Positions 3,421 to 49,820 of a DNA stretch of 49,820 bases are shown one piece after another. The DNA is taken from IMG/VR virus record IMGVR_UViG_3300014824_000003, one strand, 5' to 3'. Every line of letters begins with the position of its first letter. The first letter of the stretch is position 1. Under the pieces are notes generated by a model. The model had not been told where the DNA came from. It searched no databases and was given only the letters and a program-made list of their open reading frames with translations. The translations under genes were made by a program, and so were the position numbers. The stretch is from a virus.

Positions 3421-4169
3421 TCTTCTTCCCTTTCAAATTTCCCGTCTATGTATTTATAGGTTTCATATGCCGGTATTGTGTAGAAATTCGGATAAAGATC
3501 ATGTTTTTCAAGCCAGGCATTGAATACAACGTCAAGCTGTTCTTCCAGTTCCTCGCGCTGTTCCTTTGTTACGTCGTCAAGGTAATTTTCCGCATATTCT
3601 CCGCCTTCGTCGTATGCGTCAGTCTGAACAGCTTCGATCACATCATATCCACAAGATAAAAGTGACGGCCGGTAAAGTTCACATTCTCCGACGAAGACGC
3701 GTTCCGGAAGAACAACCTTATATCCTTTCTTTCTGGATTCGATCATGTATTCAATTTCGTTCCTGGCGTCTTCCAGCGCTTCCGCGGCTGTGTCGTACAT
3801 TGCGGAATAATTTTCGCCGTCCATGCTATACGCAACCTTATTTCGCGTATATTTCTTAATTTCACACCAGCCTTCTTCCGCGATATTACACGATTTATGA
3901 AGTGGCTTCGCCGTTTCGATCGGGAATGAATAATCGAATTCGATCAGCGTTTCCGGCTTCGGATTGATTTTGTTAAGTTTTGCATGTGTGATTAAATATT
4001 CAGCGTCCTTCACTTCGAATTTTCCAACAATTCCGATATTCAGGATATAACAGATCACTTCGGATCCGGATTCAACCGGTATCGGATTCTTTGTTTCAAT
4101 GGTTATCGTTTTGCTTTTCTTTAGTGCTTCCCACTGTTCCGGTGTTATGTCGATCAGTATTTCGCCCAT
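3417..4169 (-). CDS. Hypothetical protein (250 aa from ATG 4169; the ORF extends to 4211)
   Basis: Strong SD AAAAGGAGAG 9 nt before ATG 4169. Confidence 0.55.
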   Translation of the reverse strand: MGEILIDITPEQWEALKKSKTITIETKNPIPVESGSEVICYILNIGIVGKFEVKDAEYLITHAKLNKINPKPETLIEFDYSFPIETAKPLHKSCNIAEEGWCEIKKYTRNKVAYSMDGENYSAMYDTAAEALEDARNEIEYMIESRKKGYKVVLPERVFVGECELYRPSLLSCGYDVIEAVQTDAYDEGGEYAENYLDDVTKEQREELEEQLDVVFNAWLEKHDLYPNFYTIPAYETYKYIDGKFEREEE

Positions 4170-7424: not shown

Positions 7425-8279
7425 TTATACACCTAACAATCTATCAAGAAGATCGTCGTTTTCCTTTCTGGCGATTGCTGTTCGAATTGATTCGTCCGGG
7501 AACTGTACCGGAAGCGCCATTTTAACAATTCGATTTGTGATTCTGTCGTCAAAATTCAATTCTTCGATCTTGCAATTACTTGTAAAAATCGTGACGCGTT
7601 TTTCTATCATGCGGCCGTTCAGAATGTTGTAAAATCTTTCGTTGATCCAATCCTTCACGGCTTCAACGCCTATATCGTCGATCACAAGCACCGGCACCGA
7701 AACAATATCGTGAATCAACTTCTGTTCGGATTCTTCGTTCTTGCTGATTCCGCCCCAGGTTGCTTTTATCTGATCCAAAATCTGAATCGTTGTCGCAAAT
7801 TTCGCCTGAATGAATTTCTTTTCGATCAGGTCATTCGCGATAGAAACGGCCAGTCGTGTTTTTCCGGATCCCTTCACCCTGGAATAAAAATACAATCCCT
7901 TTCCGGTTTCCTGGATCTCGTCAAACTTTTCGACGTATCGTTTCGCGATTGTCTGGGCCATAGCCGCAAGTTCTCTATTCGCCGCCGTACTGTAACAATC
8001 CGTTTGAAAATTGTCTACCGTCTGTCCTTCGAATTCCTTTGGGATTGTCGCAAACTTCAAGCGACCGTTCAGCCGGTATCTTTGAAGGTATCCACACGAA
8101 CATTCGCGACAAAATTCGTGTCCGTCCGGCTCTTTCACCATTTCCCAGCCGGTATCGCGGCATTTTTCGCACCTATACGCCGGTGCGGTTTCTTCGGAAT
8201 CGTTCAAGTGCTTCGTTCGTAGTGCGATCAGATCCGGAAACATCTTCCTGATTGTGTCGCTGATCTGTTCTTCCGGCAT
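7425..8279 (-). CDS. DnaC/IstB-like AAA+ helicase loader with N-terminal zinc-finger-like CxxC pairs
   Basis: Walker A VKGSGKTRLA and Walker B VLVIDDIG. N-terminal CEKCRDTGW...CRECSCG. SD AAAGGGGGCG. Confidence 0.75.
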   Translation of the reverse strand: MPEEQISDTIRKMFPDLIALRTKHLNDSEETAPAYRCEKCRDTGWEMVKEPDGHEFCRECSCGYLQRYRLNGRLKFATIPKEFEGQTVDNFQTDCYSTAANRELAAMAQTIAKRYVEKFDEIQETGKGLYFYSRVKGSGKTRLAVSIANDLIEKKFIQAKFATTIQILDQIKATWGGISKNEESEQKLIHDIVSVPVLVIDDIGVEAVKDWINERFYNILNGRMIEKRVTIFTSNCKIEELNFDDRITNRIVKMALPVQFPDESIRTAIARKENDDLLDRLLGV

Positions 8280-9210
8280 TGCTTACGCCCCCTTTGTTTT
8301 GATACTGCCCTTCAAGAACTTTCAGGGCGTTTGTTTTATTGATTAACCAGTCGAAGGAACAACCATTCCACTTCCCGGATCTCCCGGAAAGGAAATCGCT
8401 GTTCTGTGCCGCCTGGAAGATTACGTGTAACTTCTTTTCCGGCTCAATACCAGGAAAGATTTTAAGTTTATCAAGTTCCTTCACCAGTGAACGGATCTTT
8501 GTTTTCCTTGCGTCGTTTAACGCGCGTATACCTGGAAGATCCGGACAAGTAGCGTGAAAGTCTTTCATGATCTCGTCATAAGATAAACGTTCAGATTTTC
8601 GGTCAGGAACTTCGGACGTTTTTTCCGAAGTTTCGAATATATCTTCGTTAGAAGATATATTATATATATTCTTATTCTTATTCTTATTCTGTTTCGTGAC
8701 TTCACGCTCTGTCACGCGTGACGTCACGTGACTTGTCACATTGTCTGTCACGTTTTCCGGTAAAGTTTCCGGATTTTCCGAAGAATTGTCCGGAAGCGCC
8801 GGCGTGTTACCAGCTTCCAGAAGCGCGCGTTTTTTCTCGCGTTCTCTCTGCTTTCGGATCCTTGCTTGTTCTCTGATTTTCTCCATTCCTTCGGTGTTCT
8901 GGTGCTTTTCGAAGTTGGAAATATAAATACCTTTTTCGGTTCGTTCGATCATTCGGAATTTCTCAAAAGTGCCAAGTGCCAGGCGAACGGTCGCCAGCGG
9001 CTTATTGAATATCGTCGCCAGCATTTCGTCACTGTAAGGGAATTCGTCTTCGATCAGGACAAGCCCTTTCGCGTTACATTTGCCGGCAAGCGCTATTATC
9101 CGGATCCAGATAACAAGAATCGCGTCGCCTTCCGGCATAGACTGAATAATTTTGATTTTTTCATCGTCGAACATGTCAACGCGAAGCTTGATCCAGTTAA
9201 TATCTGCCAT
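8173..9210 (-). CDS. Phage replisome organizer (N-terminal Phage_rep_org_N-like domain plus C-terminal FDWL...KVLEGQY domain)
   Basis: MADINWIKLRVDMFDDEKIKIIQSMPEGDAILVIWIRI is typical of the family. A low-complexity linker separates the domains. The 3' end overlaps the dnaC-like gene by 107 nt. Confidence 0.7.
   Translation of the reverse strand: MADINWIKLRVDMFDDEKIKIIQSMPEGDAILVIWIRIIALAGKCNAKGLVLIEDEFPYSDEMLATIFNKPLATVRLALGTFEKFRMIERTEKGIYISNFEKHQNTEGMEKIREQARIRKQREREKKRALLEAGNTPALPDNSSENPETLPENVTDNVTSHVTSRVTEREVTKQNKNKNKNIYNISSNEDIFETSEKTSEVPDRKSERLSYDEIMKDFHATCPDLPGIRALNDARKTKIRSLVKELDKLKIFPGIEPEKKLHVIFQAAQNSDFLSGRSGKWNGCSFDWLINKTNALKVLEGQYQNKGGVSNAGRTDQRHNQEDVSGSDRTTNEALERFRRNRTGV
8651..8751. 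other. Putative origin of replication inside the organizer gene: AT-rich/TTCTTA repeats plus clustered GTCAC/GTGAC palindromes
   Basis: gatatattatatatatt(cttatt)x3 is followed by 7 GTCAC/GTGAC pentamers in 56 bp, including the perfect palindromes GTCACGCGTGAC and GTGACGTCAC. Confidence 0.45.
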
Positions 9211-9225
9211 AGTAAAACACCGCCT

Positions 9226-10257
9226 TTATAAATATTTACTCATAATGTTTCTGCGCGAAAGCGGCTTCTTCTCTGTTGCCGGTTTCTTCTCCGGTTCCAG
9301 GTCGTCCAGGAAGTTCACGTCTTTTTTCATCGTACTTTCATGTGTTGCCGCCAGGTTCTTTTTTATCGCTTCTTTGTTCTCTGAAACCTTGTTATACACA
9401 ATATCAAGGCGTGTCTGTGGATAATTCAGTCCAGAAACACAACATATTGTGTTTCCGTCGTTGAAGGTCTGGAATGTGTCGATCGGCGTTCCTAAGTCTT
9501 TTTCGAGGTCTGCCATTCGTACATTGCCAGACAATGACGCCGTAATGTATTTAACAGCTCTATCTCCTTCGATCGGGGCGAAAGGTGTATTATGTATAGC
9601 CTTAATCACTTCGGCGCTTTCCTGGGCCTTCTGGCGTGTCACAACGGCCATTCCGTGGGCCTTTAATGTTTCGATGATCTCCGCCTTGTCAATATTGCCC
9701 TTTACGCTCTTGTGTTTTTCCGGAATATCCAGGAATGAACAAAAATCTTCGACGAAGCGCGAATTCAGTTCTAGCTTGTCTCCGTTGTTGTTATCCAGGA
9801 TAAAGCAAGAAGCAAGTCCCGGAATCTGTGTCAGTTCCGAAAAACATTCATAGGAATTCATGTGGCTTTTAACGCTTTCTTCCGGGTTCGGAATGATCGT
9901 CATGGCGCCGATTGTCTTTCCGTCGTCAATCAGAAGATCCGCAAGCATAGGGCCGGCGCCTGAACCGGTTCCGCCGCCGCTAGCGAAGATTACAAAAATC
10001 AATTCTGACTTGATCTTTGTTTCGATTTCTGCGGCGATCTGGTCGAAGTCGTCGATCACAAGCTGTTTCGCCTTTCTTCTGTCCTTGTTACAACCTTCTC
10101 CGTTCGGGATATGATACTTGAATTTCGCCTTTTCAAGCGTGTCAAGATCTTCCTGGCTTGTGTTGATGTAAAGCACGTTATAGCCCTTCTGTTCAAAAAG
10201 CTGTCCGATATTTCCGCCAGCCTGGCCGACGGCTACAAAAGCAATTTTATTTTTCAT
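9226..10257 (-). CDS. tubZ: Tubulin/FtsZ-superfamily GTPase, TubZ-like
   Basis: GQAGGNIG (T1 loop) and the tubulin signature ASGGGTGSGAGP. Overall layout resembles clostridial phage TubZ. Confidence 0.8.
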   Translation of the reverse strand: MKNKIAFVAVGQAGGNIGQLFEQKGYNVLYINTSQEDLDTLEKAKFKYHIPNGEGCNKDRRKAKQLVIDDFDQIAAEIETKIKSELIFVIFASGGGTGSGAGPMLADLLIDDGKTIGAMTIIPNPEESVKSHMNSYECFSELTQIPGLASCFILDNNNGDKLELNSRFVEDFCSFLDIPEKHKSVKGNIDKAEIIETLKAHGMAVVTRQKAQESAEVIKAIHNTPFAPIEGDRAVKYITASLSGNVRMADLEKDLGTPIDTFQTFNDGNTICCVSGLNYPQTRLDIVYNKVSENKEAIKKNLAATHESTMKKDVNFLDDLEPEKKPATEKKPLSRRNIMSKYL

Positions 10258-10627
10258 TGTCTGATTCTCCCTTCGTTGTATTATCGAACGTCTGTTGTTC
10301 GGTTTCTGCCGGAACGCTCCCGATATTCCGGGCGCCGGTCAAAATGATTTCCTGGCCGTTAATCTCATATAGCCACGTTCCGTATAGTCCGGAATGTAAA
10401 TCAATAACGCCCTGGTATGTGTCCCAGCATTTCGTTTCTTCGTTGTAGATCTGAACAGTCGCAAGCGATCCGTCCAGATCTGAATTCTTTTTCTGTTTTT
10501 CCGTTTCTTCGCGTGCCGTGTTGCTGTTGCCCAGAATGGCGGCCAGCGTTAAGAATATGGCCGCCAGCATTAAGAAGATAAGGCCGTGTAAAACAGAATT
10601 AGCAAAAAGTTTTTTATTTCGATTCAT
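10247..10627 (-). CDS. Membrane-anchored protein (126 aa) between tubR and tubZ
   Basis: N-terminal TM helix LHGLIFLMLAAIFLTLAAIL. Translationally coupled: overlaps tubR by 14 nt and tubZ by 11 nt. Confidence 0.6.
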   Translation of the reverse strand: MNRNKKLFANSVLHGLIFLMLAAIFLTLAAILGNSNTAREETEKQKKNSDLDGSLATVQIYNEETKCWDTYQGVIDLHSGLYGTWLYEINGQEIILTGARNIGSVPAETEQQTFDNTTKGESDNEK

Positions 10628-10874
10628 TCTTCGCCCTTTCCAGAAATTCGCACCCTTCCGGCGTTATGAAAAACGTGTCCGCCCGGCCTTCTTTCAAGCC
10701 GCGGCATATGTAGCCGGACTGTTCAAATTCCTTTATTTTCTTAAAAATTGTATTTTCCTTGTAACCACAATCTTCTTCTGTGTCGGTGATTTCCCGAACC
10801 GACATAGAACATAATTTGTTTGTTGCTCCGTTTGCTTTCAGAATCGAAAGCACCAGGAAGCCCAGTCTGTTCAT
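10614..10874 (-). CDS. tubR: Small winged-helix DNA-binding protein, TubR-like centromere binder
   Basis: 86 aa with a wHTH-like pattern. First gene of the tubZ operon, 17 nt downstream of the iteron array. Confidence 0.55.
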   Translation of the reverse strand: MNRLGFLVLSILKANGATNKLCSMSVREITDTEEDCGYKENTIFKKIKEFEQSGYICRGLKEGRADTFFITPEGCEFLERAKNESK

Positions 10875-10890
10875 TCTTTCACCGTCCTTT

Positions 10891-10970
10891 CTAACTCTGA
10901 TAAACTCTGATTATCTCTGATTTACTCTGATAAACTCTGATTATCTCTGATTTACTCTGATAAACTCTGA
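10891..10970. repeat. tubC-like centromere: eight tandem 10-bp iterons NNNNCTCTGA (30-bp super-unit taaactctgattatctctgatttactctga)
   Basis: Read directly: ctaactctga taaactctga ttatctctga tttactctga, repeated. Confidence 0.85.
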
Positions 10971-11212
10971 TTTTTTGAAAGTAAATATTCAGGGATAGTC
11001 GGTTCGCCGCGTTCAGTTTTGATTTCTTCAAGGCTCTTTCCGTCCAGAAATGCCTTCTGATCCATCGAACCGCACGTCGGACATTCTGCTATACAGATAC
11101 ACGATAAAAAGACGTGTCCGCACTTGTTACATTTCATTTTCCAGAACGGATCCGTCACCCGTGTAATGCCGTCAGAATAATATCTTCTGGCGCTTGCGCC
11201 GATTCTTGACAT
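10952..11212 (-). CDS. Zinc-ribbon protein (86 aa)
   Basis: CNKCGH...CPTCGS. The last 6 codons are encoded by the iteron array. Confidence 0.55.
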   Translation of the reverse strand: MSRIGASARRYYSDGITRVTDPFWKMKCNKCGHVFLSCICIAECPTCGSMDQKAFLDGKSLEEIKTERGEPTIPEYLLSKNQSLSE

Positions 11213-12083: not shown

Positions 12084-13055
12084 TTATCGGCGAACAGGTT
12101 CCCCTAAACAAGCGGAGAAAAAGCCGTGGTTCGTCCCGACGTTCGAACGTTCGTAGTACAAGTTCAACGCGGAAGGGCCAGCGCGCGAAGGGTTGCCGCA
12201 ACTGCCACCCACGATCGGGATTGCTTCTTCCAGATCGGCGTCTGCTGATAACCATTCCGAATTTTCCTTCATGTCGTCCGTGATGATTCCTAAGTCTTTC
12301 AGGATCTGCGGAACTTCGGTCAAATTGACGTATGTTTCCGATCTCATTCCACCGGCCCAGCCGTCAACCTTTTCTTTGTCGGTCGTGATAACAAGTTCGC
12401 CGTCTTCGTTTGCTCCTATCCTTACCGGATCCGGGAACGGAAGATCGTCAACGTGTACTTCCTGGAATTCTTCCGAAGAAATCGAAAGATCCGCGTCAGG
12501 TGCCGCCGCGTCGTTATCCGGCATATACTGGATCACGCCGCTTTTCAATCGAAGTCCGGCAATCATTTTCCAGACAAGCCCGACCACATCAGCGATTCCA
12601 GTTTCTTTATTTCCGTTGTGGAACCAATTCGCCGGGCCGGTGCCGGTCAGCGTTCTTCCACAATTCGGAATACCGATTCCGACTTCCGTTTCGTCATTGT
12701 GATACTTGCCGAAGCTTGTATTTCCGTGAATATCCGGAATTGTATGTTCGCGAATATACTTCCATTCCGCCCAGGTCAGCAAGTGCCAGCCGCGGCCCTT
12801 TCTCTTACATGCGGCGATTGCTTCGTCGAAGTTAATTCTTACGGCCGGATCAACCGCCGGCAACGAATACGCGCGTCCGTTTCTGATACAATTAACGAAC
12901 TGGCTTAAATAAATGGAATCATATTCCACACCGCGGACGAAAAACATTCGATCCGCTTCTTCCGGTGTCTTCGCCGTGTTCTCAACTTTCAGCATGATTG
13001 AAGGAATTCCCATGTCGTCATACTTTAAAACAATAGATTCTTTCGTGTTACTCAT
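12084..13055 (-). CDS. DGR target protein 2 (FGE/C-type-lectin-fold variable protein, paralog of 26364-27413)
   Basis: The C-terminal 36 codons are VR2. GRAYSLPAVDP...GWHLLTWAEWKYI...GPANWFH aligns with target 1. Confidence 0.85.
   Translation of the reverse strand: MSNTKESIVLKYDDMGIPSIMLKVENTAKTPEEADRMFFVRGVEYDSIYLSQFVNCIRNGRAYSLPAVDPAVRINFDEAIAACKRKGRGWHLLTWAEWKYIREHTIPDIHGNTSFGKYHNDETEVGIGIPNCGRTLTGTGPANWFHNGNKETGIADVVGLVWKMIAGLRLKSGVIQYMPDNDAAAPDADLSISSEEFQEVHVDDLPFPDPVRIGANEDGELVITTDKEKVDGWAGGMRSETYVNLTEVPQILKDLGIITDDMKENSEWLSADADLEEAIPIVGGSCGNPSRAGPSALNLYYERSNVGTNHGFFSACLGEPVRR
12110..12218 (-). repeat. DGR variable region VR2
   Basis: 109 bp align to TR 25721-25829 with 9 mismatches. 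All 9 fall at TR plus-strand T, which is coding-strand A. Confidence 0.9.
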
Positions 13056-13874: not shown

Positions 13875-13998
13875 GTTCGTCAACCGCTTCTGTTTGGTTG
13901 ATAAGCCAAGTATATATGTTTTATTTTGGTTTGTCAACCATTTTTACAAAAAATATAAAAATATTTTGGTTGACGAACCAAAGAAATAATGATATTAT
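13875..13998. promoter_or_regulatory. Immunity switch: divergent promoters with TTGGTT-N4-AACCAA-type operators
   Basis: Plus strand: TTGACG(13970)-17-TATTAT(13993). Minus strand: TTGACA(13937-13932)-17-TATACT(13914-13909). Palindromes at 13966-13981 (perfect), 13927-13940, 13894-13909 and 13875-13886 overlap the -35 boxes. Confidence 0.6.
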
Positions 13999-14027
13999 GT
14001 GTTCATAAAACGAAAGGGGGTGACGTG

Positions 14028-14486
14028 ATGAATGAAAGAATCCGTTGCTTACGCGAAGAAATAGGTCTTTCGCGCGCGGCTTTCGGTCAAAGAATAGGTG
14101 TAAGCGGCGACGTAATAAATAATTTAGAACGTGGTCGTGTAGAGATAAAAGAACCTATGATAAAACTTATCTGTTCCGAGTTTTCCATAAATGAAGAATG
14201 GTTAAGAACCGGATCCGGAGAAATGAAAGTAAAAAGTCCTTCTGATACTATGGATCAGTTAAAAAAGGAATTTAATCTTGACGATTTCAGTTATAATCTG
14301 GTTTACCAGTATTTGAAATTAGACGCCGATCAGCGTCAGACGGTAAGAGATTTCTTTTATAATGTGGTTGAATCAGGAAGTATGGACGAAGACTTGTTCG
14401 GTGATGTACCGAAAACGCCGGAAGAACTGGAAAAGGAATTTCCGCCGGTCGAAGAAAAACCGGTTCGGAATAAAGAAACGGGCTAG
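14028..14486 (+). CDS. CI-like XRE-family repressor
   Basis: HTH LSRAAFGQRIGVSGDVINNLERGR plus a C-terminal domain. SD AAAGGGGGTGA. Divergent from the early operon. Confidence 0.75.
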   Translation: MNERIRCLREEIGLSRAAFGQRIGVSGDVINNLERGRVEIKEPMIKLICSEFSINEEWLRTGSGEMKVKSPSDTMDQLKKEFNLDDFSYNLVYQYLKLDADQRQTVRDFFYNVVESGSMDEDLFGDVPKTPEELEKEFPPVEEKPVRNKETG

Positions 14487-15850: not shown

Positions 15851-17857
15851 ATGGCATACGCCAAAGCGAAAAAACACCTGAAAATCTGGACGAAGAAAAA
15901 GGCGGCGTTATACGTCCGCGTTTCCACCAGATACCAGGTCGATAAAGACAGTCTTCCGTTCCAACGGAAGAAATTAAAAGAATATTGTAAATTTCTAGGG
16001 CTTGAAGATTATGTAATTTTTGAAGACGACGGATATTCAGCAAAGAACACGGAACGTCCGCACTTTCAAGAAATGATGTCACGCGTCAGATCCGGCGAAT
16101 TTTCACACCTGATCGTGTGGAAGGTGGATCGTGTTTCCCGAAATCTTCTGGACTTCGCGGCAATGTACCAGGAATTAAAAGATCACAAGGTCACGTTTAT
16201 TTCGATGAACGAACAGTTCGACACTTCAACCGCGATCGGTGAAGCTATGCTTAAAATCATTCTGATTTTTGCGGAACTTGAAAGAAACATGACGTCCGAA
16301 CGTGTAACCGGAATCATGCTGGATCGTGCCGAACAAGGATTGTGGAACGGCGCACGTATGCCGGTTGGTTATCGTTGGAACAACGAAACAAAGTTCCCTG
16401 AACCGGATCCGGAAGAAGTGAAGATCGTTCAACTTATCTTTGACAAATACGAAGAATGGAAATCAAGCATAAAAATAGCGCGATACCTGAATAACAACAA
16501 TTTCAAGTCAAAGCGCGGCGGCCAGTGGACTTCGAAGCTTATCCACGATATTATTCGGAATCCGTTCTATATCGGAACATACCGCTATAATCTGCGTGAA
16601 TCCGGGCGCGGCCCATTGAAGCCGGAAAGTGAATGGATCGTCCGTGAAAACAATCACCCGGCGATCATTGACAAGGCGCAATTTGACCGGTGCAATAAGA
16701 TCATGGATCAGAACGGATCCAGCCGCGACACGTCCGATCTACGCGCCAGGAAGTACGTTCACACATTTTCCGGACACCTGGTTTGTGGCAAGTGCGGCGC
16801 TAATATGATCGCGTCGAAGGATCGCGCCAGAGCGAACGGCTGGCGGCCGTCAATGTATCGTTGCGCCCAGCGTTCCCGAATGTTGGATTGCGACAATTCC
16901 AGGACGATAAATGAATCTTATATCGGGCCTTTTATATTTAATTATATCGCGAACCTTGCCAGGGTTCAGAAGAATTTTAAGAATATAACCACGGTTGAAA
17001 AGCTGGAAAGGGAACTTCTGAAAGGTGAAACGTTCGACGGTGTGGCCGGAATACTTCCGGAAGGCTTAAATTTGACCTTCCAGGCACTTTCTTTTCGTCA
17101 GGTAGGGAATGGAACCTATATTCCGGATGTTGACTTCCTGGGCGATTCTGACGGCGCCAGTGACCGCGATCAGATCGAATTGTTGAAGTCAGAAATCGAG
17201 AAGTCAAAAAATGCTGTCACCAGATTAACGGACGTTTATCTGTTCGATCCGGATTCCATGACGAAGGAAGAATTCGCCACAAAGAAAAAGGAACTGTCAA
17301 AGAAAATTGAAGGCATGGAACGCCAGCTTGCGGATCTTCTGGACGATTCCGGGAACGATGATCTGGCCGACATGTCATTTATCAAGAAGGCTTCCGCGTT
17401 CCTGGTGGCTCAAAGGATCGTTTCAAAATCCTTCGTCGATTATGTCGGCATGGCCCAGGAATTAGACAACGAAATCCTGAAAGACTTTATCGACCAGATC
17501 GTCGATCAGATCGTCGTCCTGGACGGCCGTGTCCAGTCAATCACGTTCATAAACGGATTAAAGCACGAATTCCGGTACGCAACGCCGGCGGAATTGCCAG
17601 TGTGTCAGAAATGCGGCGGACGTATCGGTTCAACGTGCGGCTGTCGGACAAGGACGTTCGATTTCTCCGGTAAGCGTTACCAGCGAATAAAAGTCGGTGA
17701 TCCGCGCGACACGCTTCACGGGAAGAAGAATCCGGTTTGTCCGGAATGTTTCGCCCATGAAGGGCGCTGGCACCATTGGAATTGCAAGATTGAAACGTGT
17801 CCGATCTGTGGCGGACGCCTGGCGGAATGTGAACACGGGCCGAATGGTAAGAAATAG
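15851..17857 (+). CDS. Large serine recombinase (integrase) with an extra C-terminal Cys/His-rich module
   Basis: Resolvase domain ALYVRVSTRYQ...DGYSAKNTERP...VWKVDRVSRN, recombinase domain, zinc ribbon CGKCG...C, coiled coil, then about 90 aa with 4 CxxC pairs. Confidence 0.85.
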   Translation: MAYAKAKKHLKIWTKKKAALYVRVSTRYQVDKDSLPFQRKKLKEYCKFLGLEDYVIFEDDGYSAKNTERPHFQEMMSRVRSGEFSHLIVWKVDRVSRNLLDFAAMYQELKDHKVTFISMNEQFDTSTAIGEAMLKIILIFAELERNMTSERVTGIMLDRAEQGLWNGARMPVGYRWNNETKFPEPDPEEVKIVQLIFDKYEEWKSSIKIARYLNNNNFKSKRGGQWTSKLIHDIIRNPFYIGTYRYNLRESGRGPLKPESEWIVRENNHPAIIDKAQFDRCNKIMDQNGSSRDTSDLRARKYVHTFSGHLVCGKCGANMIASKDRARANGWRPSMYRCAQRSRMLDCDNSRTINESYIGPFIFNYIANLARVQKNFKNITTVEKLERELLKGETFDGVAGILPEGLNLTFQALSFRQVGNGTYIPDVDFLGDSDGASDRDQIELLKSEIEKSKNAVTRLTDVYLFDPDSMTKEEFATKKKELSKKIEGMERQLADLLDDSGNDDLADMSFIKKASAFLVAQRIVSKSFVDYVGMAQELDNEILKDFIDQIVDQIVVLDGRVQSITFINGLKHEFRYATPAELPVCQKCGGRIGSTCGCRTRTFDFSGKRYQRIKVGDPRDTLHGKKNPVCPECFAHEGRWHHWNCKIETCPICGGRLAECEHGPNGKK

Positions 17858-18035: not shown

Positions 18036-18048
18036 TTTTTATTTCCGC

Positions 18049-18098
18049 CTTTCCTTAACTTCTGATTATATTATACACTCTAAAGTGTAATATGTCAA
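18049..18098 (-). promoter_or_regulatory. Promoter-operator-leader cassette, copy A
   Basis: TTGACA-17-TATAAT with palindrome TACACT-N4-AGTGTA (18074-18089). 47/50 identical to copies B and C. Confidence 0.7.
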
Positions 18099-20369: not shown

Positions 20370-20398
20370 ATTTTACATTTTACACTTTATAATGTCAA
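20370..20398 (-). promoter_or_regulatory. Promoter of the HTH operon (TTGACA-17-TAAAAT) overlapping a degenerate operator
   Basis: Minus strand has TTGACA at 20398-20393 and TAAAAT at 20375-20370. The site TACACTttatAATGTC lies at 20381-20396. Confidence 0.55.
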
Positions 20399-20445
20399 GT
20401 TGAAATAAATATTTTATTTTTTAATTGTTTTCTTTACATTATATA

Positions 20446-20495
20446 TTGACATATTACACTATAAAGTGTATAATGTAATCAGAAGTTAAGGAAAG
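20446..20495 (+). promoter_or_regulatory. Promoter-operator-leader cassette, copy B
   Basis: TTGACA(20446)-17-TATAAT(20469), palindrome TACACTataaAGTGTA at 20455-20470. 50/50 identical to copy C. Confidence 0.7.
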
Positions 20496-20508
20496 TGAGG
20501 AATTAAAA

Positions 20509-20958
20509 ATGTTAGATAAGAACGGAAAAGAAATGGTAACTGGTTGTGTGGTAGAAATCAAAAACGCATACTTCAAAACAGATAACGGACTTTACTTCAT
20601 TGAAAAGTCGCCGGAAGAACTCGGCTGGCTCGGAAGTGATTATTGTCTTCTTAAATTAAAAAGAAACGGTCAGTTAAGCACCGCAAAGAAAAATATTTGT
20701 TTCTGGCCGATTATGTCATTCGTAAGTGATCGAATGAAATCCATTGAAGCCAACGCCTGGAATAAAGAACATGCGACAATCGAAGTCAGAACAGACATTG
20801 ATCGCCAGTATATCAAGGAATACTTCAAGGAAGAAGCCGAACGTCTGGATCCGATGATCGAACACATGAAATATAATTTCGGTGAAGATCACCCGGAAAC
20901 AATTAAACAGATAAAGCTTCGCGATCATCGAATGGAAGTCAGCGATTCAATCCAGTAA
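20509..20958 (+). CDS. Hypothetical protein (149 aa)
   Basis: ORF track; SD AAGTGAGGAAT. Confidence 0.6.
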   Translation: MLDKNGKEMVTGCVVEIKNAYFKTDNGLYFIEKSPEELGWLGSDYCLLKLKRNGQLSTAKKNICFWPIMSFVSDRMKSIEANAWNKEHATIEVRTDIDRQYIKEYFKEEAERLDPMIEHMKYNFGEDHPETIKQIKLRDHRMEVSDSIQ

Positions 20959-20963
20959 ATGAA

Positions 20964-20987
20964 GGGCGGCCAGTGCGCCGCCTTTTA
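20964..20987 (+). terminator. Terminator GGCGGC-cagtgc-GCCGCC followed by TTTT
   Basis: Read directly. Confidence 0.6.
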
Positions 20988-21053
20988 TACACTTTATAAT
21001 GTAATATAGAAATAATATTTTTACATTTTTATTATTTTCCTTTACATTTTTAC

Positions 21054-21103
21054 TTGACATATTACACTATAAAGTGTATAATGTAATCAGAAGTTAAGGA
21101 AAG
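21054..21103 (+). promoter_or_regulatory. Promoter-operator-leader cassette, copy C
   Basis: TTGACA(21054)-17-TATAAT(21077), palindrome at 21063-21078. An upstream half-site TACACTttatAATGTA lies at 20988-21003. Confidence 0.7.
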
Positions 21104-21116
21104 GCGGTAAATAAAA

Positions 21117-21341
21117 ATGACGAAATTTGAAATCGGAAAAACTTATTCAATGCGTAGTATCTGCGATCATGATTGTGTGTGGACTTACACCGTAACAGCC
21201 AGAACGGCGAAGACAATCACCATTTCGGACGGTGAAAAGGTTCAGAAGTGCCGGATCATCAAGGCGGCTTCTGAATACAGAAACGCCGAAACCGTATATC
21301 CACTGGGCCAGTATTCAATGGCCCCGGCATTAACAGCATAA
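21117..21341 (+). CDS. Hypothetical protein (74 aa)
   Basis: ORF track; SD AAGGAAAGGCGG. Confidence 0.6.
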   Translation: MTKFEIGKTYSMRSICDHDCVWTYTVTARTAKTITISDGEKVQKCRIIKAASEYRNAETVYPLGQYSMAPALTA

Positions 21342-21831: not shown

Positions 21832-22062
21832 ATGGAAGAATGGAAAGAAGCTCTTGAAGCGGCTGTGAATAAAACAATAGGCGCCTGGAATAAGGCAAGT
21901 GAAGCCTTCTTATCTCACAATCAGAAAGGTTTTGAACACTGGCACAACGAATTTAATAGATATGTGGAAACTTTTTCACATGCGATCGGAATTCCGGAAG
22001 AAGATTTTATTTCTTACTTGGAAGAAAAAGGACTGTATAGAACAGAAAAGAAAGGTGAATGA
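21832..22062 (+). CDS. Hypothetical protein (76 aa)
   Basis: ORF track; SD AGGAAGGAAAG. Confidence 0.55.
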   Translation: MEEWKEALEAAVNKTIGAWNKASEAFLSHNQKGFEHWHNEFNRYVETFSHAIGIPEEDFISYLEEKGLYRTEKKGE

Positions 22063-22316
22063 ATATGTATAAGAATTATTTCGATGAATTAAAGGTTAGG
22101 CTTTTTGAATCTTGTGATTGGTGCAATAAACAAGCGAACGACGGAGATCGGAACCGAAATCATGTGAACTATGGTTCTGCTTCTGCTATCGCCCGGATCA
22201 TGACGGATTTCGGCCACAACGTACACATTCCAGTCTGGGACGACAACGGATTCCTTCGGATTCCGAAAATTGTAATTGACGGCGAAGTGTTTATTGATTT
22301 TGAAAAATCAGAGTAA
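22059..22316 (+). CDS. Hypothetical protein (85 aa); the last codons run into iteron array 2
   Basis: ORF track; ATGA-type overlap with the upstream gene. Confidence 0.55.
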   Translation: MNMYKNYFDELKVRLFESCDWCNKQANDGDRNRNHVNYGSASAIARIMTDFGHNVHIPVWDDNGFLRIPKIVIDGEVFIDFEKSE

Positions 22317-22367
22317 ATCAGAGATAATCAGAGTTTATCAGAACAAATCAGAATATATCAGAAATAA
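22308..22367. repeat. Second centromere-like iteron array, inverted relative to 10891-10970
   Basis: tcagagtaaa tcagagataa tcagagttta is the exact reverse complement of the 30-bp super-unit of array 1. Three degenerate TCAGAA units follow. Confidence 0.85.
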
Positions 22368-22373
22368 AAAGAA

Positions 22374-22414
22374 CCCACACAAGCCCCGTAAATCGGTTTT
22401 ACTGCTTGCGTGGG
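22374..22414. terminator. Long hairpin CCCACACAAGC...GCTTGCGTGGG; the T run is better on the minus strand
   Basis: 11-bp stem with one mismatch and a 19-nt loop. The minus strand continues TTCTTTTTATTTC. Confidence 0.5.
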
Positions 22415-22606: not shown

Positions 22607-23797
22607 TTAACACATTTTGTTTACAAGCGCCTGAATGGTTGCGTAATTGTAACCGGCGGCTTCAAGCTTTGCCTTTCTCTGTGGGTTATTTCCCCATTTT
22701 CCGGCCAGAACTTCCTTCGCGATTTCCTCGTTGGATTTCTTCGCCGGTGCGGCTTTCTGATTAACGATCGCCTGGATCGCGTTGTAATCGTAGCCAGCGG
22801 CGGAAAGTCTGTTCTTTCTGTCATCACCATTTCCCCAGGCTCCAGCCAGAACTTCCTTCGCGATTTCCTCGTTGGATTTCTTCGCCGGTGTGGCTTTCTG
22901 ATTAACAATCGCCTGGATCGCGTTGTAATCGTAGCCAGCGGCGGAAAGTCTGTTCTTTCTGTCATCACCATTTCCCCAGGCTCCAGCCAGAACCTCGTTC
23001 GCGATTTCCTCGTTAGATTTCTTCGCTGGTGCCGGTGTGGCTTTCTGATTAACAATCGCCTGGATCGCGTTGTAATCATAACCGGCGGCGGAAAGTCTAT
23101 TCTTTCTGTCGTCGCCATTTCCCCATTTTCCGGCCAGAACTTCCTTCGCGATTTCCTCGTTGGACTTCTTCGGCTGTGCCGGTGCTGGCTTTGATCCGCC
23201 CAGTTCTGCCGGAAAATCTCTGTAACAAATATTCATGTCAAGTCCGGAAGATCCGATTCCGTCACATGATCCCTTGCTGGTGTACTGCCAAATATCGAAG
23301 TTTGAAACGTTCGGCTTGTTTCCAGGCTGTCCGTTGTTTACTCCGTACTTTGCAACCCATTTTGTGTATGAATCAACGCCCACCAGGTAGTTATTCCACC
23401 AGTTTTCGTTAGCATACACGCCAGGCATGTAACCAGCGGCCTTCACGGCTTCACAAAAGACTTTTACAACGTCCTTCGCAATTCCGGACTGGCTGGCTTC
23501 CTCAACGTCGATATAAAGCGGATAACTAAGCTTGTAGCCTTTCACCAGACGAAGCGCGTGATCTGCTTCTGATTTTGCCATATCTGTATTTTTTGCGTAA
23601 GAATACAGATAAACGCCGAACGGAATCCCTAGTCTGGAACACTCGTCGGCGTTTCTCTTGAACATTTTGTCGTCCTGGCTTTCAATGTCGGAACCATAGC
23701 CGCAACGCATAAGCACGCCGCCGATTCCAGACGCCTTTACCTTGTCCCAGTCAATAACGCCATTATGAACTGATACGTCAATCATTTTTACTTCCAT
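22607..23797 (-). CDS. Endolysin: GH25 muramidase plus four CW_7 cell-wall-binding repeats (Cpl-7-like)
   Basis: N-terminus IDVSVHNGVIDWDKVK...DIWQYTS resembles GH25. Four copies of KKSNEEIAKEVLAGxWGNGDDRKNRLSAAGYDYNAIQAIVNQKA. ATG 23797 follows SD AGTGAGGAA. Confidence 0.85.
   Translation of the reverse strand: MEVKMIDVSVHNGVIDWDKVKASGIGGVLMRCGYGSDIESQDDKMFKRNADECSRLGIPFGVYLYSYAKNTDMAKSEADHALRLVKGYKLSYPLYIDVEEASQSGIAKDVVKVFCEAVKAAGYMPGVYANENWWNNYLVGVDSYTKWVAKYGVNNGQPGNKPNVSNFDIWQYTSKGSCDGIGSSGLDMNICYRDFPAELGGSKPAPAQPKKSNEEIAKEVLAGKWGNGDDRKNRLSAAGYDYNAIQAIVNQKATPAPAKKSNEEIANEVLAGAWGNGDDRKNRLSAAGYDYNAIQAIVNQKATPAKKSNEEIAKEVLAGAWGNGDDRKNRLSAAGYDYNAIQAIVNQKAAPAKKSNEEIAKEVLAGKWGNNPQRKAKLEAAGYNYATIQALVNKMC
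22610..23170. repeat. Four tandem 141-147 bp repeats encoding the CW_7 modules (three are near-identical)
   Basis: The protein repeats R1-R3 differ at only a few residues. Confidence 0.85.
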
Positions 23798-23801
23798 GAT
23801 A

Positions 23802-24032
23802 TTATTCCTCACTTTCTACTTCCGGAATACCGGCAACACTTGTTAAAATGCTTACAACGCCAGAAACTACGGCGGAAGATACGACGATCTTCCAGTCTAC
23901 GGCGGCTACAACGGTGCTTGTGCCGATCACCGCAACGGCTGTCTGTGCCATTGTTTTAACGGCGCGAATAGCCGCTTTCTTTGCCCATTCCTTTGTGTTT
24001 ACTGACGCTTTCAAAACTGAATTCTTAAACAT
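23802..24032 (-). CDS. Holin (LL-H/phi LC3-like)
   Basis: 76 aa with two hydrophobic helices and a charged C-terminus PEVESEE. Directly upstream of the endolysin. Confidence 0.7.
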   Translation of the reverse strand: MFKNSVLKASVNTKEWAKKAAIRAVKTMAQTAVAVIGTSTVVAAVDWKIVVSSAVVSGVVSILTSVAGIPEVESEE

Positions 24033-25720: not shown

Positions 25721-25835
25721 AAGCGGAGAAAAAGCCGTGGTTCGTCCTGACGTTCGAACGTTCGTTGTTCAAGTTCAACGCGGAAGGGCCAGCGTTCGAA
25801 GTGTTGTTGTAACTGCCACCCACGATCGGCAAGCG
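25721..25835 (-). repeat. DGR template repeat (TR)
   Basis: 115 bp homologous to VR1 and 109 bp to VR2. By my count it has 25 coding-sense adenines and 8 AAC codons in the VR frame. The track ORF 25623-25832 is not a gene. Confidence 0.9.
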
Positions 25836-26363: not shown

Positions 26364-27413
26364 TCACAATTCCATATAAGCGGAGAAAAAGCCGCGGTTC
26401 GTCCCGACGTACGAACGTTCGTTGTTCAAGAGCAACGCGGAAGGGCCAGCGAGCGAAGTGTCGTAGTAACTGCCACCCACGAACGGCAAGCGCTCACCTT
26501 CGTTGTTGATCCAGAATCCGCCGGTGTGAGTTACGCCCGTAACCGGTGCAAGGAATAATTCCTTTAAGATCTCCGGAATAGTTGTGACGCCCGTTCCGGC
26601 CGCAATATTTCCGAAGTTTGGTGAATAAGTTGATCCAGCGGCGACAGTATCTGTTGCAATTTTGAAATCCTTTGTATATTTCAAAGTTCCGGCTGTTCCA
26701 GGTTCAACAAGTGATCCGTCCGGCTTGATAGCCTTCCAGAATGTGGACGCGTCGGCGTGTGATACCTGTTTCGCGGCAAGGTTGCCGGCGAAGATCTGAA
26801 TTTCGCCGTTCTTAACACGCATACCAGAACACCACTTCCAGCAATTTCCAACCCAGTCCGCGATTCCCTGGCGTGTTCCGTCGTGGAACCATGTCGCCGG
26901 GCCTGATCCGGTCGCTGTTCTGGTTGTTCTTGTGCCGCCGGAACCGTCGCTTTCTGTTGCGGTTGTTTCGCCGGTTTCGTATGTATAGGTGTGATTCTTG
27001 CCATACTGTGTATTTCCACGCGGAACAAATCCGGATTTATAGATCAAGTGGTTAATGACCGCGCGTTCCGGAATACTCATCAGGTGGAATCCAGTTCCCT
27101 TCGCATTACAAGCCTTGACAGAATCGTCAAAGTTGATTGAAGCGCGCGGATCTACGCCAGGCCATGAATAAGCACGTCCGTTTACGATTGTGTTTAAGAA
27201 ATTCGAAATGAAGAATCGCTTGTATAACACGCCGTCAACATTGAACGCTTCGGCGACTTTTGAACTTCCGCCGGCAAAAAGCTGGGCGTTTGTGATCTGG
27301 TTAATAGGCTTCATAAAGGACGGAAGGTTCGCGTTATCCATGATAACAGTAGAACCGTAGCCAGTAAGGCCTTCCGTCGCGAATTTTAAGCTGTCAAACT
27401 GATAACTATTCAT
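26364..27413 (-). CDS. DGR target protein 1 (FGE/C-type-lectin-fold receptor-binding candidate)
   Basis: Last gene of the tail module. GRAYSWPGVDP...GFHLMSIPE...GPATWFH. The C-terminal 38 codons are VR1. Confidence 0.85.
   Translation of the reverse strand: MNSYQFDSLKFATEGLTGYGSTVIMDNANLPSFMKPINQITNAQLFAGGSSKVAEAFNVDGVLYKRFFISNFLNTIVNGRAYSWPGVDPRASINFDDSVKACNAKGTGFHLMSIPERAVINHLIYKSGFVPRGNTQYGKNHTYTYETGETTATESDGSGGTRTTRTATGSGPATWFHDGTRQGIADWVGNCWKWCSGMRVKNGEIQIFAGNLAAKQVSHADASTFWKAIKPDGSLVEPGTAGTLKYTKDFKIATDTVAAGSTYSPNFGNIAAGTGVTTIPEILKELFLAPVTGVTHTGGFWINNEGERLPFVGGSYYDTSLAGPSALLLNNERSYVGTNRGFFSAYMEL
26378..26492 (-). repeat. DGR variable region VR1
   Basis: 115 bp align to the TR with 10 mismatches, all at TR plus-strand T (coding-strand A). 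Confidence 0.9.
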
Positions 27414-49260: not shown

Positions 49261-49820
49261 CTATCTCTTGCCCTTGCCATGCTTGAAGGTCAGGCTCTTA
49301 ATCAGCTTATCTTTGTTGTCCTGGTTGATACCAATGTATCGAAGGGTGACGCTTATGTCTGCATGGTTGAATATCTCCATCAGTGTAACCGCGTCGTGTG
49401 TCTGCTGGTACATGTGATAGCCGAATGTCTTTCGTAGTGTGTGCGTGCCTATTGCTTCCAGGCCGAACACCTTCGCCGCGTCAGTCAGTACGTTGTACGC
49501 TTGCTGTCTGGTGATAGGCTTATTCGGGTATCGTGGCGATTTGAATAGATATTCATAATCTCTTTTGCCAGCGATATATTCTTCGATGATAGGTTTCAGT
49601 TCGGAATTTATCGGGAATCTTTTTTCCTTCCCGGTTTTTTTCTCCCTGATATAAACAGCGTCTTTTTCCCGGACGTCACGAATTCGGAATTTTAAAATAT
49701 CCGAAATTCTAAGCCCGGTATAAATACCAAACATAAAAAGAACATAATCACGTTCATTATTCGATTTTAGGTATTCGGCCAAATCCATCACAAGATCCAT
49801 GTCCCTGATCGGTTCGACCG
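49261..49820 (-). CDS. Small tyrosine recombinase (catalytic domain only, 188 aa in full); the 5' end continues across the circular junction (see 1-134)
   Basis: GLRISD (Arg I), HTLRKTF (His-x-x-Arg), NHADISVTLRYI (catalytic Tyr). No N-terminal core-binding domain. Confidence 0.8.
   Translation of the reverse strand, partial: VEPIRDMDLVMDLAEYLKSNNERDYVLFMFGIYTGLRISDILKFRIRDVREKDAVYIREKKTGKEKRFPINSELKPIIEEYIAGKRDYEYLFKSPRYPNKPITRQQAYNVLTDAAKVFGLEAIGTHTLRKTFGYHMYQQTHDAVTLMEIFNHADISVTLRYIGINQDNKDKLIKSLTFKHGKGKR
49694..49820. repeat. Terminal direct repeat, second copy of 1-127
   Basis: Identical string. Confidence 0.9.

Follow-up and report, generated by a model that had tools for sequence, protein, structure and literature searches.

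A c-st-type TubZRC module in a temperate phage of human-gut Clostridia, with a membrane-protein gene lodged between tubR and tubZ

What would a tubulin-based DNA segregation system do in a temperate phage of about 50 kb, and is a membrane-protein gene lying within such a system a working part of it? Both questions are raised by a locus at positions 9226 to 10970 of the virus record IMGVR_UViG_3300014824_000003, a stretch of 49,820 nucleotides that is referred to here, at its full length, as the window. An initial annotation had described the locus as a TubZ/TubR/tubC-like partition module: a 343-aa tubulin-like protein, an 86-aa winged-helix protein and eight tandem iterons, with a 126-aa membrane-anchored protein encoded between the two genes. 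The identification of a TubZRC module was confirmed in the work described here. In our judgement the locus is likely to be a DNA-positioning module of type III (TubZRC) and of the c-st lineage, lacking TubY and placed in an early replication operon, which would act on excised or infecting phage circles while they replicate, and not in a plasmid prophage; the membrane protein, here called X, would be a facultative passenger.

The module and its associated repeats comprise the following features (aa, amino acids; ORF, open reading frame):

9226–10257, minus strand: tubZ, a c-st-type tubulin/FtsZ-fold GTPase (ORF, Pfam, PDB match, Foldseek)
10247–10627, minus strand: X, a predicted single-pass membrane protein of 126 aa (ORF, homologue alignment, charge topology)
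10614–10874, minus strand: tubR, a winged-helix putative centromere-binding protein of the short c-st TubR type (BLASTP, profile search)
10891–10970, minus strand: array 1, tubC-like, eight direct 10-bp iterons TCAGAGNNNN (TRF, motif count, conservation)
22308–22363, plus strand: array 2, six 10-bp iterons, three TCAGAG and then three TCAGAA (TRF, motif count), absent from the initial annotation

The three ORFs lie on the same strand, and the coding overlaps of 14 nt (10614–10627, tubR and X) and 11 nt (10247–10257, X and tubZ) that had been reported were found as stated.

The sequence of the 343-aa protein was re-read and both motifs noted previously, GQAGGNIG and the tubulin signature SGGGTGSGAG, are present. 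Its suggested resemblance to clostridial TubZ was borne out by database searches. With phmmer the best PDB match was c-st TubZ (4xcq/3v3t, E 1e-37, residues 1–338); the next best was CetZ (7.7e-10), FtsZ and CetZ proteins scoring at 1e-9 or worse. Pfam returned the tubulin domain (PF00091, 1.4e-15) and the TubZ-specific C-terminal domain TubZ_C_3 (PF22340, 4.7e-18), and phrog_17961 was matched at 2.9e-38. When an AF2 model was submitted to Foldseek, 3v3t and 4xcq ranked first and the protein was placed among TubZ, CetZ and FtsZ. The GTP-binding motifs T1 (GQAGGNIG) and T4 (GGGTGSG) and the T7 motif (N188-I-D190-K-A-E193, NxDxxE) are invariant in 17 homologues. Residues ~305–331 form a variable linker that is followed by a conserved tip, R-R-N-I-M-S-K-Y-L, with P332, R336, I338, M339, S340, K341, Y342 and L343 invariant in the same 17 proteins; the C-terminal tail is of low confidence or disordered in the model. 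On sequence and modelling evidence, then, the 343-aa protein is a TubZ. A word-indexed search found 648 homologues of the tubZ family, and the relatives surveyed below are 25 loci from IMG/VR and 41 species-level genome loci (cited by L numbers) that encode TubZ relatives of 44 to 100% identity.

The 86-aa protein could be aligned end to end with c-st TubR (CST190) by BLASTP, with 30% identity over 79 aa (E 1e-10). A first profile (A1) contained c-st TubR, so that its match to 6tey was circular; a second (A2) was therefore built from 15 family members with c-st excluded, and this still recovered the c-st TubR structure 6tey_A over its full length (E 5.4e-12). The Bacillus TubRs 4asn and 3m8e were matched weakly by the c-st-free profile (E 0.2), and phrog_17403 matched the protein at 8.4e-7. 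These matches support the TubR-like assignment made initially, and judged by them the protein is a TubR.

Array 1 was seen both by motif reading and by TRF (period 10, 8.1 copies). Read on the minus strand from 10970 to 10891, each unit consists of TCAGAG and a 4-nt spacer, and the eight units run head to tail with a perfect 30-bp super-period, the spacers being TTTA, TAAA and ATAA. When at most one mismatch is allowed, 10 copies of the motif TCAGAGNNNNTCAGAG are present in the window, where 0.15 would be expected; the maximum in 100 shuffles was 2. The array overlaps the last 19 nt, including the stop codon, of a zinc-ribbon ORF (10952–11212, minus strand), and it is separated from the ATG of tubR by 16 nt (10875–10890), not by the 17 nt reported before.

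The suggestion that the array is centromere-like is favoured by its position and by its conservation. Among the surveyed relatives, about 50 loci have an array of 4–12 units of TCAGA[GA] with a 10-bp period, directly upstream of tubR and on the same strand. All type III centromeres so far described share a location upstream of tubR (PMC6009700). The array period is unchanged in the most divergent branch (L024 and L064, TubZ ~52% identity), and the core there is TGAAA; the published c-st iteron is (A/T)GAA (PMC6009700). The recognition-helix region of TubR reads ..N-T-[IFYL]-[FY]-K.. in the TCAGA class, ..T-L-H-R-R.. in L024 and L064 (class pattern ..T[LV][HR]R..) and ..T-V-R-R-S.. in c-st. The iteron core thus appears to switch together with the class of TubR, and array 1 can be regarded as tubC-like and putatively bound by TubR. 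In a scan of genome contigs for a triple-iteron pattern, the matches listed were dominated by chance occurrences in unrelated GC-rich genomes, and the scan was informative for only a few Lachnospiraceae loci.

Three of the 10 motif occurrences fall in array 2, which is inverted with respect to array 1 and lies 11.4 kb from it by the shorter path and 38.3 kb by the longer path around the circle. It is situated at the 3' end of an ORF (22059–22316), immediately before a strong hairpin facing the endolysin gene's end. The same genomic position, between the orf85 cluster and the endolysin gene, is kept in at least five relatives (L077, L098, L118, L134 and L176). Arrays 1 and 2 of the window have a 35-nt identical stretch and the rare spacer ATAA in common, and in the phage of L007 (TubZ 80% identity) the two arrays share another rare spacer, TTCG; L077 belongs to that same phage, in which both arrays are found on one 50-kb contig, on opposite strands. 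Because rare spacers and the 35-nt stretch are common to the two arrays within one phage, the arrays evolve in concert. A distal, inverted copy of this type is new: no described tubC has one. The simplest reading is that array 2 would be a second loading site for TubR.

A hybrid array was observed in L074 (IMGVR_UViG_3300045988_008683, 3439–3504), where the crossover lies within the stretch shared by the two arrays (compared with window 10916–10970 and 22308–22400). At its junction the flank of array 1 next to the zinc-ribbon gene is fused to the flank of array 2 next to the terminator and the endolysin gene, as inversion of the 11.4-kb segment between the arrays would be expected to produce. 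This raises a more elaborate proposal, in which the inverted, co-evolving arrays form a bipartite centromere bracketing an 11.4-kb lysogeny/accessory segment (cI, serine recombinase and small ORFs). The arrays would be looped or paired by TubR as sites for TubZ, or recombination between them would invert the segment and rewire the operon that feeds tubR, tubZ and the replication genes, with X coupling the machine to the envelope in those lineages that have it. If this were true, an integrative phage would possess a type III system that has an integral-membrane partner and a second centromere at a distance. Searches of viral and metagenome contigs did not recover the complementary junction (orf85-array-tubR), however, and searches of genome contigs did not recover the L074-type junction; six metagenome contigs carry the normal junction of zinc-ribbon ORF, array and tubR. 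An invertible segment is therefore not claimed: the hybrid could have arisen by rare recombination or through chimeric assembly, and the bipartite proposal as a whole must be thought improbable.

The genes around the module are relevant to its role and are listed here:

8173–9210, minus strand: replisome organiser (Phage_rep_org_N, PF09681, 5.4e-47), directly 3' of tubZ
7425–8279, minus strand: DnaC/IstB-like loader (PF01695, PF00308)
10952–11212, minus strand: zinc-ribbon ORF of 86 aa with CxxC...CxxC (weak zinc-ribbon Pfam hits); membership in the module is not claimed
13989–14486, plus strand: cI-like helix-turn-helix (HTH) repressor (domain search), with a plus-strand promoter-like site in front
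15851–17857: large serine recombinase (domain search)

The gene order is tubR-X-tubZ, replisome organiser and loader, followed by SSB, MazG and Dam, and the placement of organiser and loader after tubZ is shared by relatives. By tblastn, the zinc-ribbon ORF was also found to be syntenic upstream of tubC in most of them. A minus-strand promoter-like site (13937–13909) upstream of the tubR operon faces the plus-strand site before the cI-like gene. The initial annotation had mentioned integrases in the plural; a single recombinase was found, the large serine recombinase listed above. Lysis and structural genes, on the minus strand, make up the rest of the genome.

The proximity of replication genes raises the question of whether the TCAGAG arrays could be something other than TubR sites, namely iterons of two separated replication origins that are bound by the replisome organiser. 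Phages with replisome organisers use repeated boxes as origins, and phage SPP1 has a two-origin arrangement, oriL/oriR; the window likewise has arrays near its replication module and two of them in one genome. Against this, an array is always directly upstream of tubR, as is every described tubC (PMC6009700), TCAGA arrays persist at that place in L023, L054, L055, L073 and L101, where no Phage_rep_org_N homologue follows, and the core changes to TGAAA alongside a c-st-like TubR helix. We would regard the origin explanation as very improbable indeed.

The lifestyle of the phage was then considered, as the initial annotation had pointed to an extrachromosomal prophage stage or to intracellular positioning of phage DNA. 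The window has an exact terminal direct repeat of 127 bp (1–127 = 49694–49820) and its assembly is consequently circular, its true length being 49,693 bp; the L028 locus, 99% identical, is colinear across the circular join. The closest characterised homologues, TubZ and TubR of c-st, segregate a low-copy circular episome, and the same could be supposed here, the recombinase serving for dimer resolution or for an alternative integrated state. The circular assembly with its 127-bp overlap would suit such a plasmid prophage, as would the several relatives that are stand-alone IMG/VR contigs of ~50 kb, but circularly permuted virion DNA is also expected to give a circular assembly. Many relatives are, moreover, embedded in chromosome-size contigs (~100–950 kb) or in a chromosome: the Anaerocolumna chromosome that holds L053 is complete at 6.4 Mb, the scaffold of L032 measures 950 kb and the contig of L028, the 99%-identical locus, 170 kb. 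Six human-gut metagenome contigs have an identical junction of zinc-ribbon ORF, array and tubR, and four of them are 62–309 kb long; taken together with L028, contigs of this kind of 101–309 kb count against a plasmid prophage. In L031 (Blautia glucerasea) and L057 (A. xylanovorans) the sequence ceases to be homologous to the window a short way beyond the recombinase gene, as it would at att junctions. The operon is also on the lytic side of a cI/cro-type switch, so that it should be repressed in a lysogen. As relatives are integrated beside a large serine recombinase, the evidence from this family does not support classical partition of a plasmid prophage, which we also consider unlikely for the window.

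The picture that emerges is of a tailed, temperate phage of ~49.7 kb from human-gut Clostridia (Lachnospiraceae and relatives). Two human-gut genomes carry virtually the same phage and are candidate hosts: L176 (HF995246.1, Firmicutes bacterium CAG:194), in which the translated ORFs beside array 2 are 99–100% identical to those of the window, and L028 (URNT01000001.1, uncultured Clostridium sp. UMGS1169), with a TubZ of 99% identity. The phage is common in public metagenomes, as its TubZ cluster (P0001) comprises 899 sequences.

The presence of a further ORF between tubR and tubZ is also established. Protein X has a short basic N-terminal tail, a transmembrane (TM) helix predicted at residues ~15–33, as its description as an N-terminally membrane-anchored protein had implied, and an acidic, β-rich domain. 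Its core, QIYNEET..DTYQG..GLYG.WLYEING.E..LTGAR.IGS, is strongly conserved, with 36 invariant columns at 42–49% identity, and X is a real gene. A 21-bp tandem duplication (TRF, 10536–10576, period 21) adds 7 aa to the TM helix (IFLMLAA/IFLTLAA); a variant without it, P0132, has 119 aa. The X of the window is a C-terminally shortened form of a family of 165–171 aa. In ten members the N-terminal flank has a net charge of +2 to +4 and the remainder one of −3 to −21. As the flank is positive and the rest negative, the predicted topology is N-in/C-out, with 5–14 residues in the cytoplasm and the β-domain outside. An AF2 model from a 6-sequence alignment (pLDDT 55) has a helix at 3–50 and then four strands, the TM helix alone being confident. 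Searches of Pfam and NCBIfam with X gave no significant family match. A short YxFxGTV-like stretch gives the C-terminal module of the long form a weak match to MBG_2 (YGX) repeats in giant surface proteins, which we take as a hint of a secreted β-module and not of homology.

The possibility that X is the TubY of this system was also examined. TubY has a MerR-type N-terminal HTH, a central coiled coil and a C-terminal lysine-rich amphipathic helix, and is a peripheral membrane protein. With its N-terminal TM helix and β-rich acidic domain, and no HTH or coiled coil, X was rejected as a TubY. When c-st TubY was compared by phmmer with all ORFs of the window the best E value was ~1, a tblastn search of all loci matched c-st itself only, and a Pfam scan of 44 window ORFs (390–22316) gave no MerR match.

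X could still be a genuine fourth component, a membrane anchor or modulator that replaces TubY and, at the membrane, tethers or releases either the TubR-tubC cargo or the TubZ filaments. A mediating role of the membrane in type III partition has been proposed, with the amphipathic tail of TubY as the link in other systems of the type (PMC7762940), and neither the window nor its relatives have a TubY homologue. Translation of X is coupled to that of tubR and tubZ, and the longer forms occur in the same slot, always between tubR and tubZ, at loci with TubZ identities of 85%, 76% and 66% to that of the window (100%), and in P0151. The distribution of X argues the other way. Its homologues numbered 25 in a word-indexed search and 18 in an exhaustive profile search of 1.84 billion representatives. 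Among 37 species-level tubRZ loci it is present in one, the 99%-identical L028, which is also the sole carrier among all 41 species-level loci; the other 36 have tubR directly next to tubZ, separated by −7 to 69 bp, and these X-less loci are likewise without TubY. The loci that do have X are scattered across the TubZ tree, and one family member of 101 aa, P0154, sits between unrelated genes outside any tubRZ context. With its predicted N-in/C-out topology, X would offer only 5–14 residues to cytoplasmic partners, its long-form C-terminal module is weakly like the MBG repeats of secreted surface proteins, and the HTH and coiled coil of TubY are missing. It seems doubtful, therefore, that X belongs to the system as a component, as its inclusion in the module by the initial annotation might suggest. 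It is probably an accessory (moron-like) passenger gene that is translationally coupled to tubR and tubZ and for which TubZRC function has no need.

For the DNA binding, filament mechanics and timing of the module, and for the role of array 2, we infer the following scheme, largely by analogy with c-st. The operon would start at the Cro-side promoter of the cI/cro-type switch, and the module heads a replication block of organiser, DnaC-like loader and SSB. TubR would coat array 1, with its eight 10-bp TCAGAG iterons just before the tubR gene itself, to give a nucleoprotein "segrosome", and array 2 would serve as a second site for its loading. TubZ would polymerise with GTP into treadmilling filaments, and its C-terminal tip (…RRNIMSKYL) would engage the TubR-DNA complex and so pull the phage genome through the cell. 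Because the relatives are integrated in chromosomes via a large serine recombinase, action after induction or infection may be supposed, and the module would then separate or position replication templates on excised or infecting replicating circles. Intracellular positioning of phage DNA during replication is thus, by analogy, the more likely of the two roles first suggested for the module, and is the one favoured here.

Several observations weigh against this explanation. All its mechanistic points rest on ~30% identity to the c-st proteins, and the AF2 model of TubZ is of moderate quality (pLDDT 58.5 overall, 69–92 in the N-domain, poor in the C-domain). The covariation of iteron and TubR rests on essentially two classes. 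A search for a sigma-70-like promoter in or beside array 1 found none, so that there is no evident sign of TubR autoregulation of the kind seen in pBtoxis or pBsph, and the operon would presumably be transcribed from the far-upstream early promoter. With regard to integration, comparison with relatives did not locate the attP of the window phage; homology in L028 extends beyond the recombinase as far as window ~19.7 kb, and the end of that contig seems to lie in the endolysin repeats; and the circular assembly makes an episomal form of this phage possible. Finally, the slot of X and its coupled start and stop codons have been kept in at least four divergent lineages, which is somewhat more persistent than would be expected of a random passenger.

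Some other repeats in the window may be recorded. The endolysin gene (22607–23812, minus strand) contains a 141-bp tandem repeat at 22688–23172 (3.4 copies, 90% match), which encodes modules of ~47 aa (…KKSNEEIAKEVLAGKWGNGDDRKNRLSAAGYDYNAIQAIVNQKA…) that are presumably cell-wall-binding; several assemblies seem to break there. TATTCT is repeated four times at 8667–8690, within the replisome-organiser gene, where it encodes NKNKNKN in a linker and is a candidate AT-rich origin region, as in phages with organiser-internal origins. A dispersed repeat of ~135 bp (84% identity) is found at 20378–20511 and 20985–21119, upstream of the plus-strand genes 20509–20958 and 21117–21341, with an inverted 64-bp partial copy at 18036–18098, just 3' of the recombinase gene; such copies may be related to att or may represent promoter/operator regions in repeated form. 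A direct repeat of ~109 bp occurs three times with 88–92% identity (12110–12218, 25721–25829 and 26378–26486). One copy is the 3' end of an early ORF of 323 aa (12084–13055, minus strand), the C-terminus of which (…GPSALNLYYERSNVGTNHGFFSA…) is like that of a late ORF of 349 aa (26364–27413, minus strand).

To date, studies of type III segregation have been confined to c-st, a plasmid prophage, and a few virulence plasmids of Bacillus. The present locus represents a large and essentially unannotated TubZRC family in ordinary integrating temperate phages, of ~50 kb, of common human-gut Clostridia: PHROGs labels the tubZ family "unknown function", the NCBI names are generic, and in the literature searched no paper linked TubZ with these hosts. 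If TubZRC does act on excised, replicating genomes, tubulin-driven positioning of DNA would be a routine part of temperate-phage replication in Firmicutes and not a curiosity of plasmid maintenance. The question would be made testable by cultured lysogens that have relatives of the phage, for example Anaerocolumna xylanovorans DSM 12503 and Blautia glucerasea MSK.18.94. For structural studies of the TubR segrosome, a compact tubC of 8 × 10 bp also offers a less complex substrate than does the c-st site of 350 bp.

It remains to compare the module with known systems. The nearest is the TubZRC(Y) of Clostridium botulinum phage c-st (Oliva et al. 2012, as cited in PMC4446434). The TubZ described here is ~30% identical to that of c-st over its full length and has the same TubZ_C_3 domain, and TubR is 30% identical (3V3T/4XCQ, 6TEY; PMC6009700; PMC5322520). 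Both systems are phage-borne and from Clostridia, both have tubR upstream of tubZ and a direct-repeat centromere, putative in the window, upstream of tubR, and in both TubZ has a C-terminal tail, predicted to be flexible in the window protein, with a conserved tip. They differ in that TubY is present in c-st and absent from the window, and in that tubC of c-st is a split site of ~350 bp with two iteron types, whereas that of the window is one compact, contiguous run of 8 × 10 bp (80 bp). Phage c-st is a 186-kb plasmid prophage; the window phage is of ~50 kb and its relatives are integrated via a serine recombinase. The inverted second array 11.4 kb away, the placement of the module in an early replication operon and the extra membrane-protein gene also distinguish the window from c-st.

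The type III systems of plasmids (pBtoxis, pXO1/pBc10987, pBM400 and pBsph) have the same tubulin-like motor, small winged-helix adaptor and upstream iterons. Their TubRs are distant in sequence from that of the window, which lacks TubY, is not a plasmid and has contiguous 10-bp iterons. The PhuZ or phiKZ-type TubZ of jumbo phages is also a phage tubulin and positions replicating phage DNA in lytic growth, but these systems have no TubR or tubC, belong to lytic jumbo phages with a phage nucleus and have a different C-domain. The TubZ of the window has a weak similarity to PhuZ in its N-domain alone (phrog_4733, 2.2e-13, residues 2–138; 3zbp, E 0.005) and is much closer to c-st TubZ. With a match confined to the N-domain, a TubR and tubC-like array present and a genome of 49.7 kb, identity with PhuZ was ruled out.

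The best functional analogy is the AlpAC system of CGP3, a filament and adaptor that serve the replication of an integrated prophage after induction. In this Corynebacterium glutamicum prophage a cytomotive filament and a co-transcribed DNA adaptor are accompanied by upstream repeats (AlpA/AlpC/alpS), and the genes are induced early and required for efficient phage DNA replication after induction (PMC4446434). The motor, unlike the TubZ of the window, is actin-like and has no sequence relationship to it, and CGP3 is cryptic. The module is thus set apart from the described systems by its compact tubC, the absence of TubY, a second, distal array and a lineage-specific accessory membrane gene.

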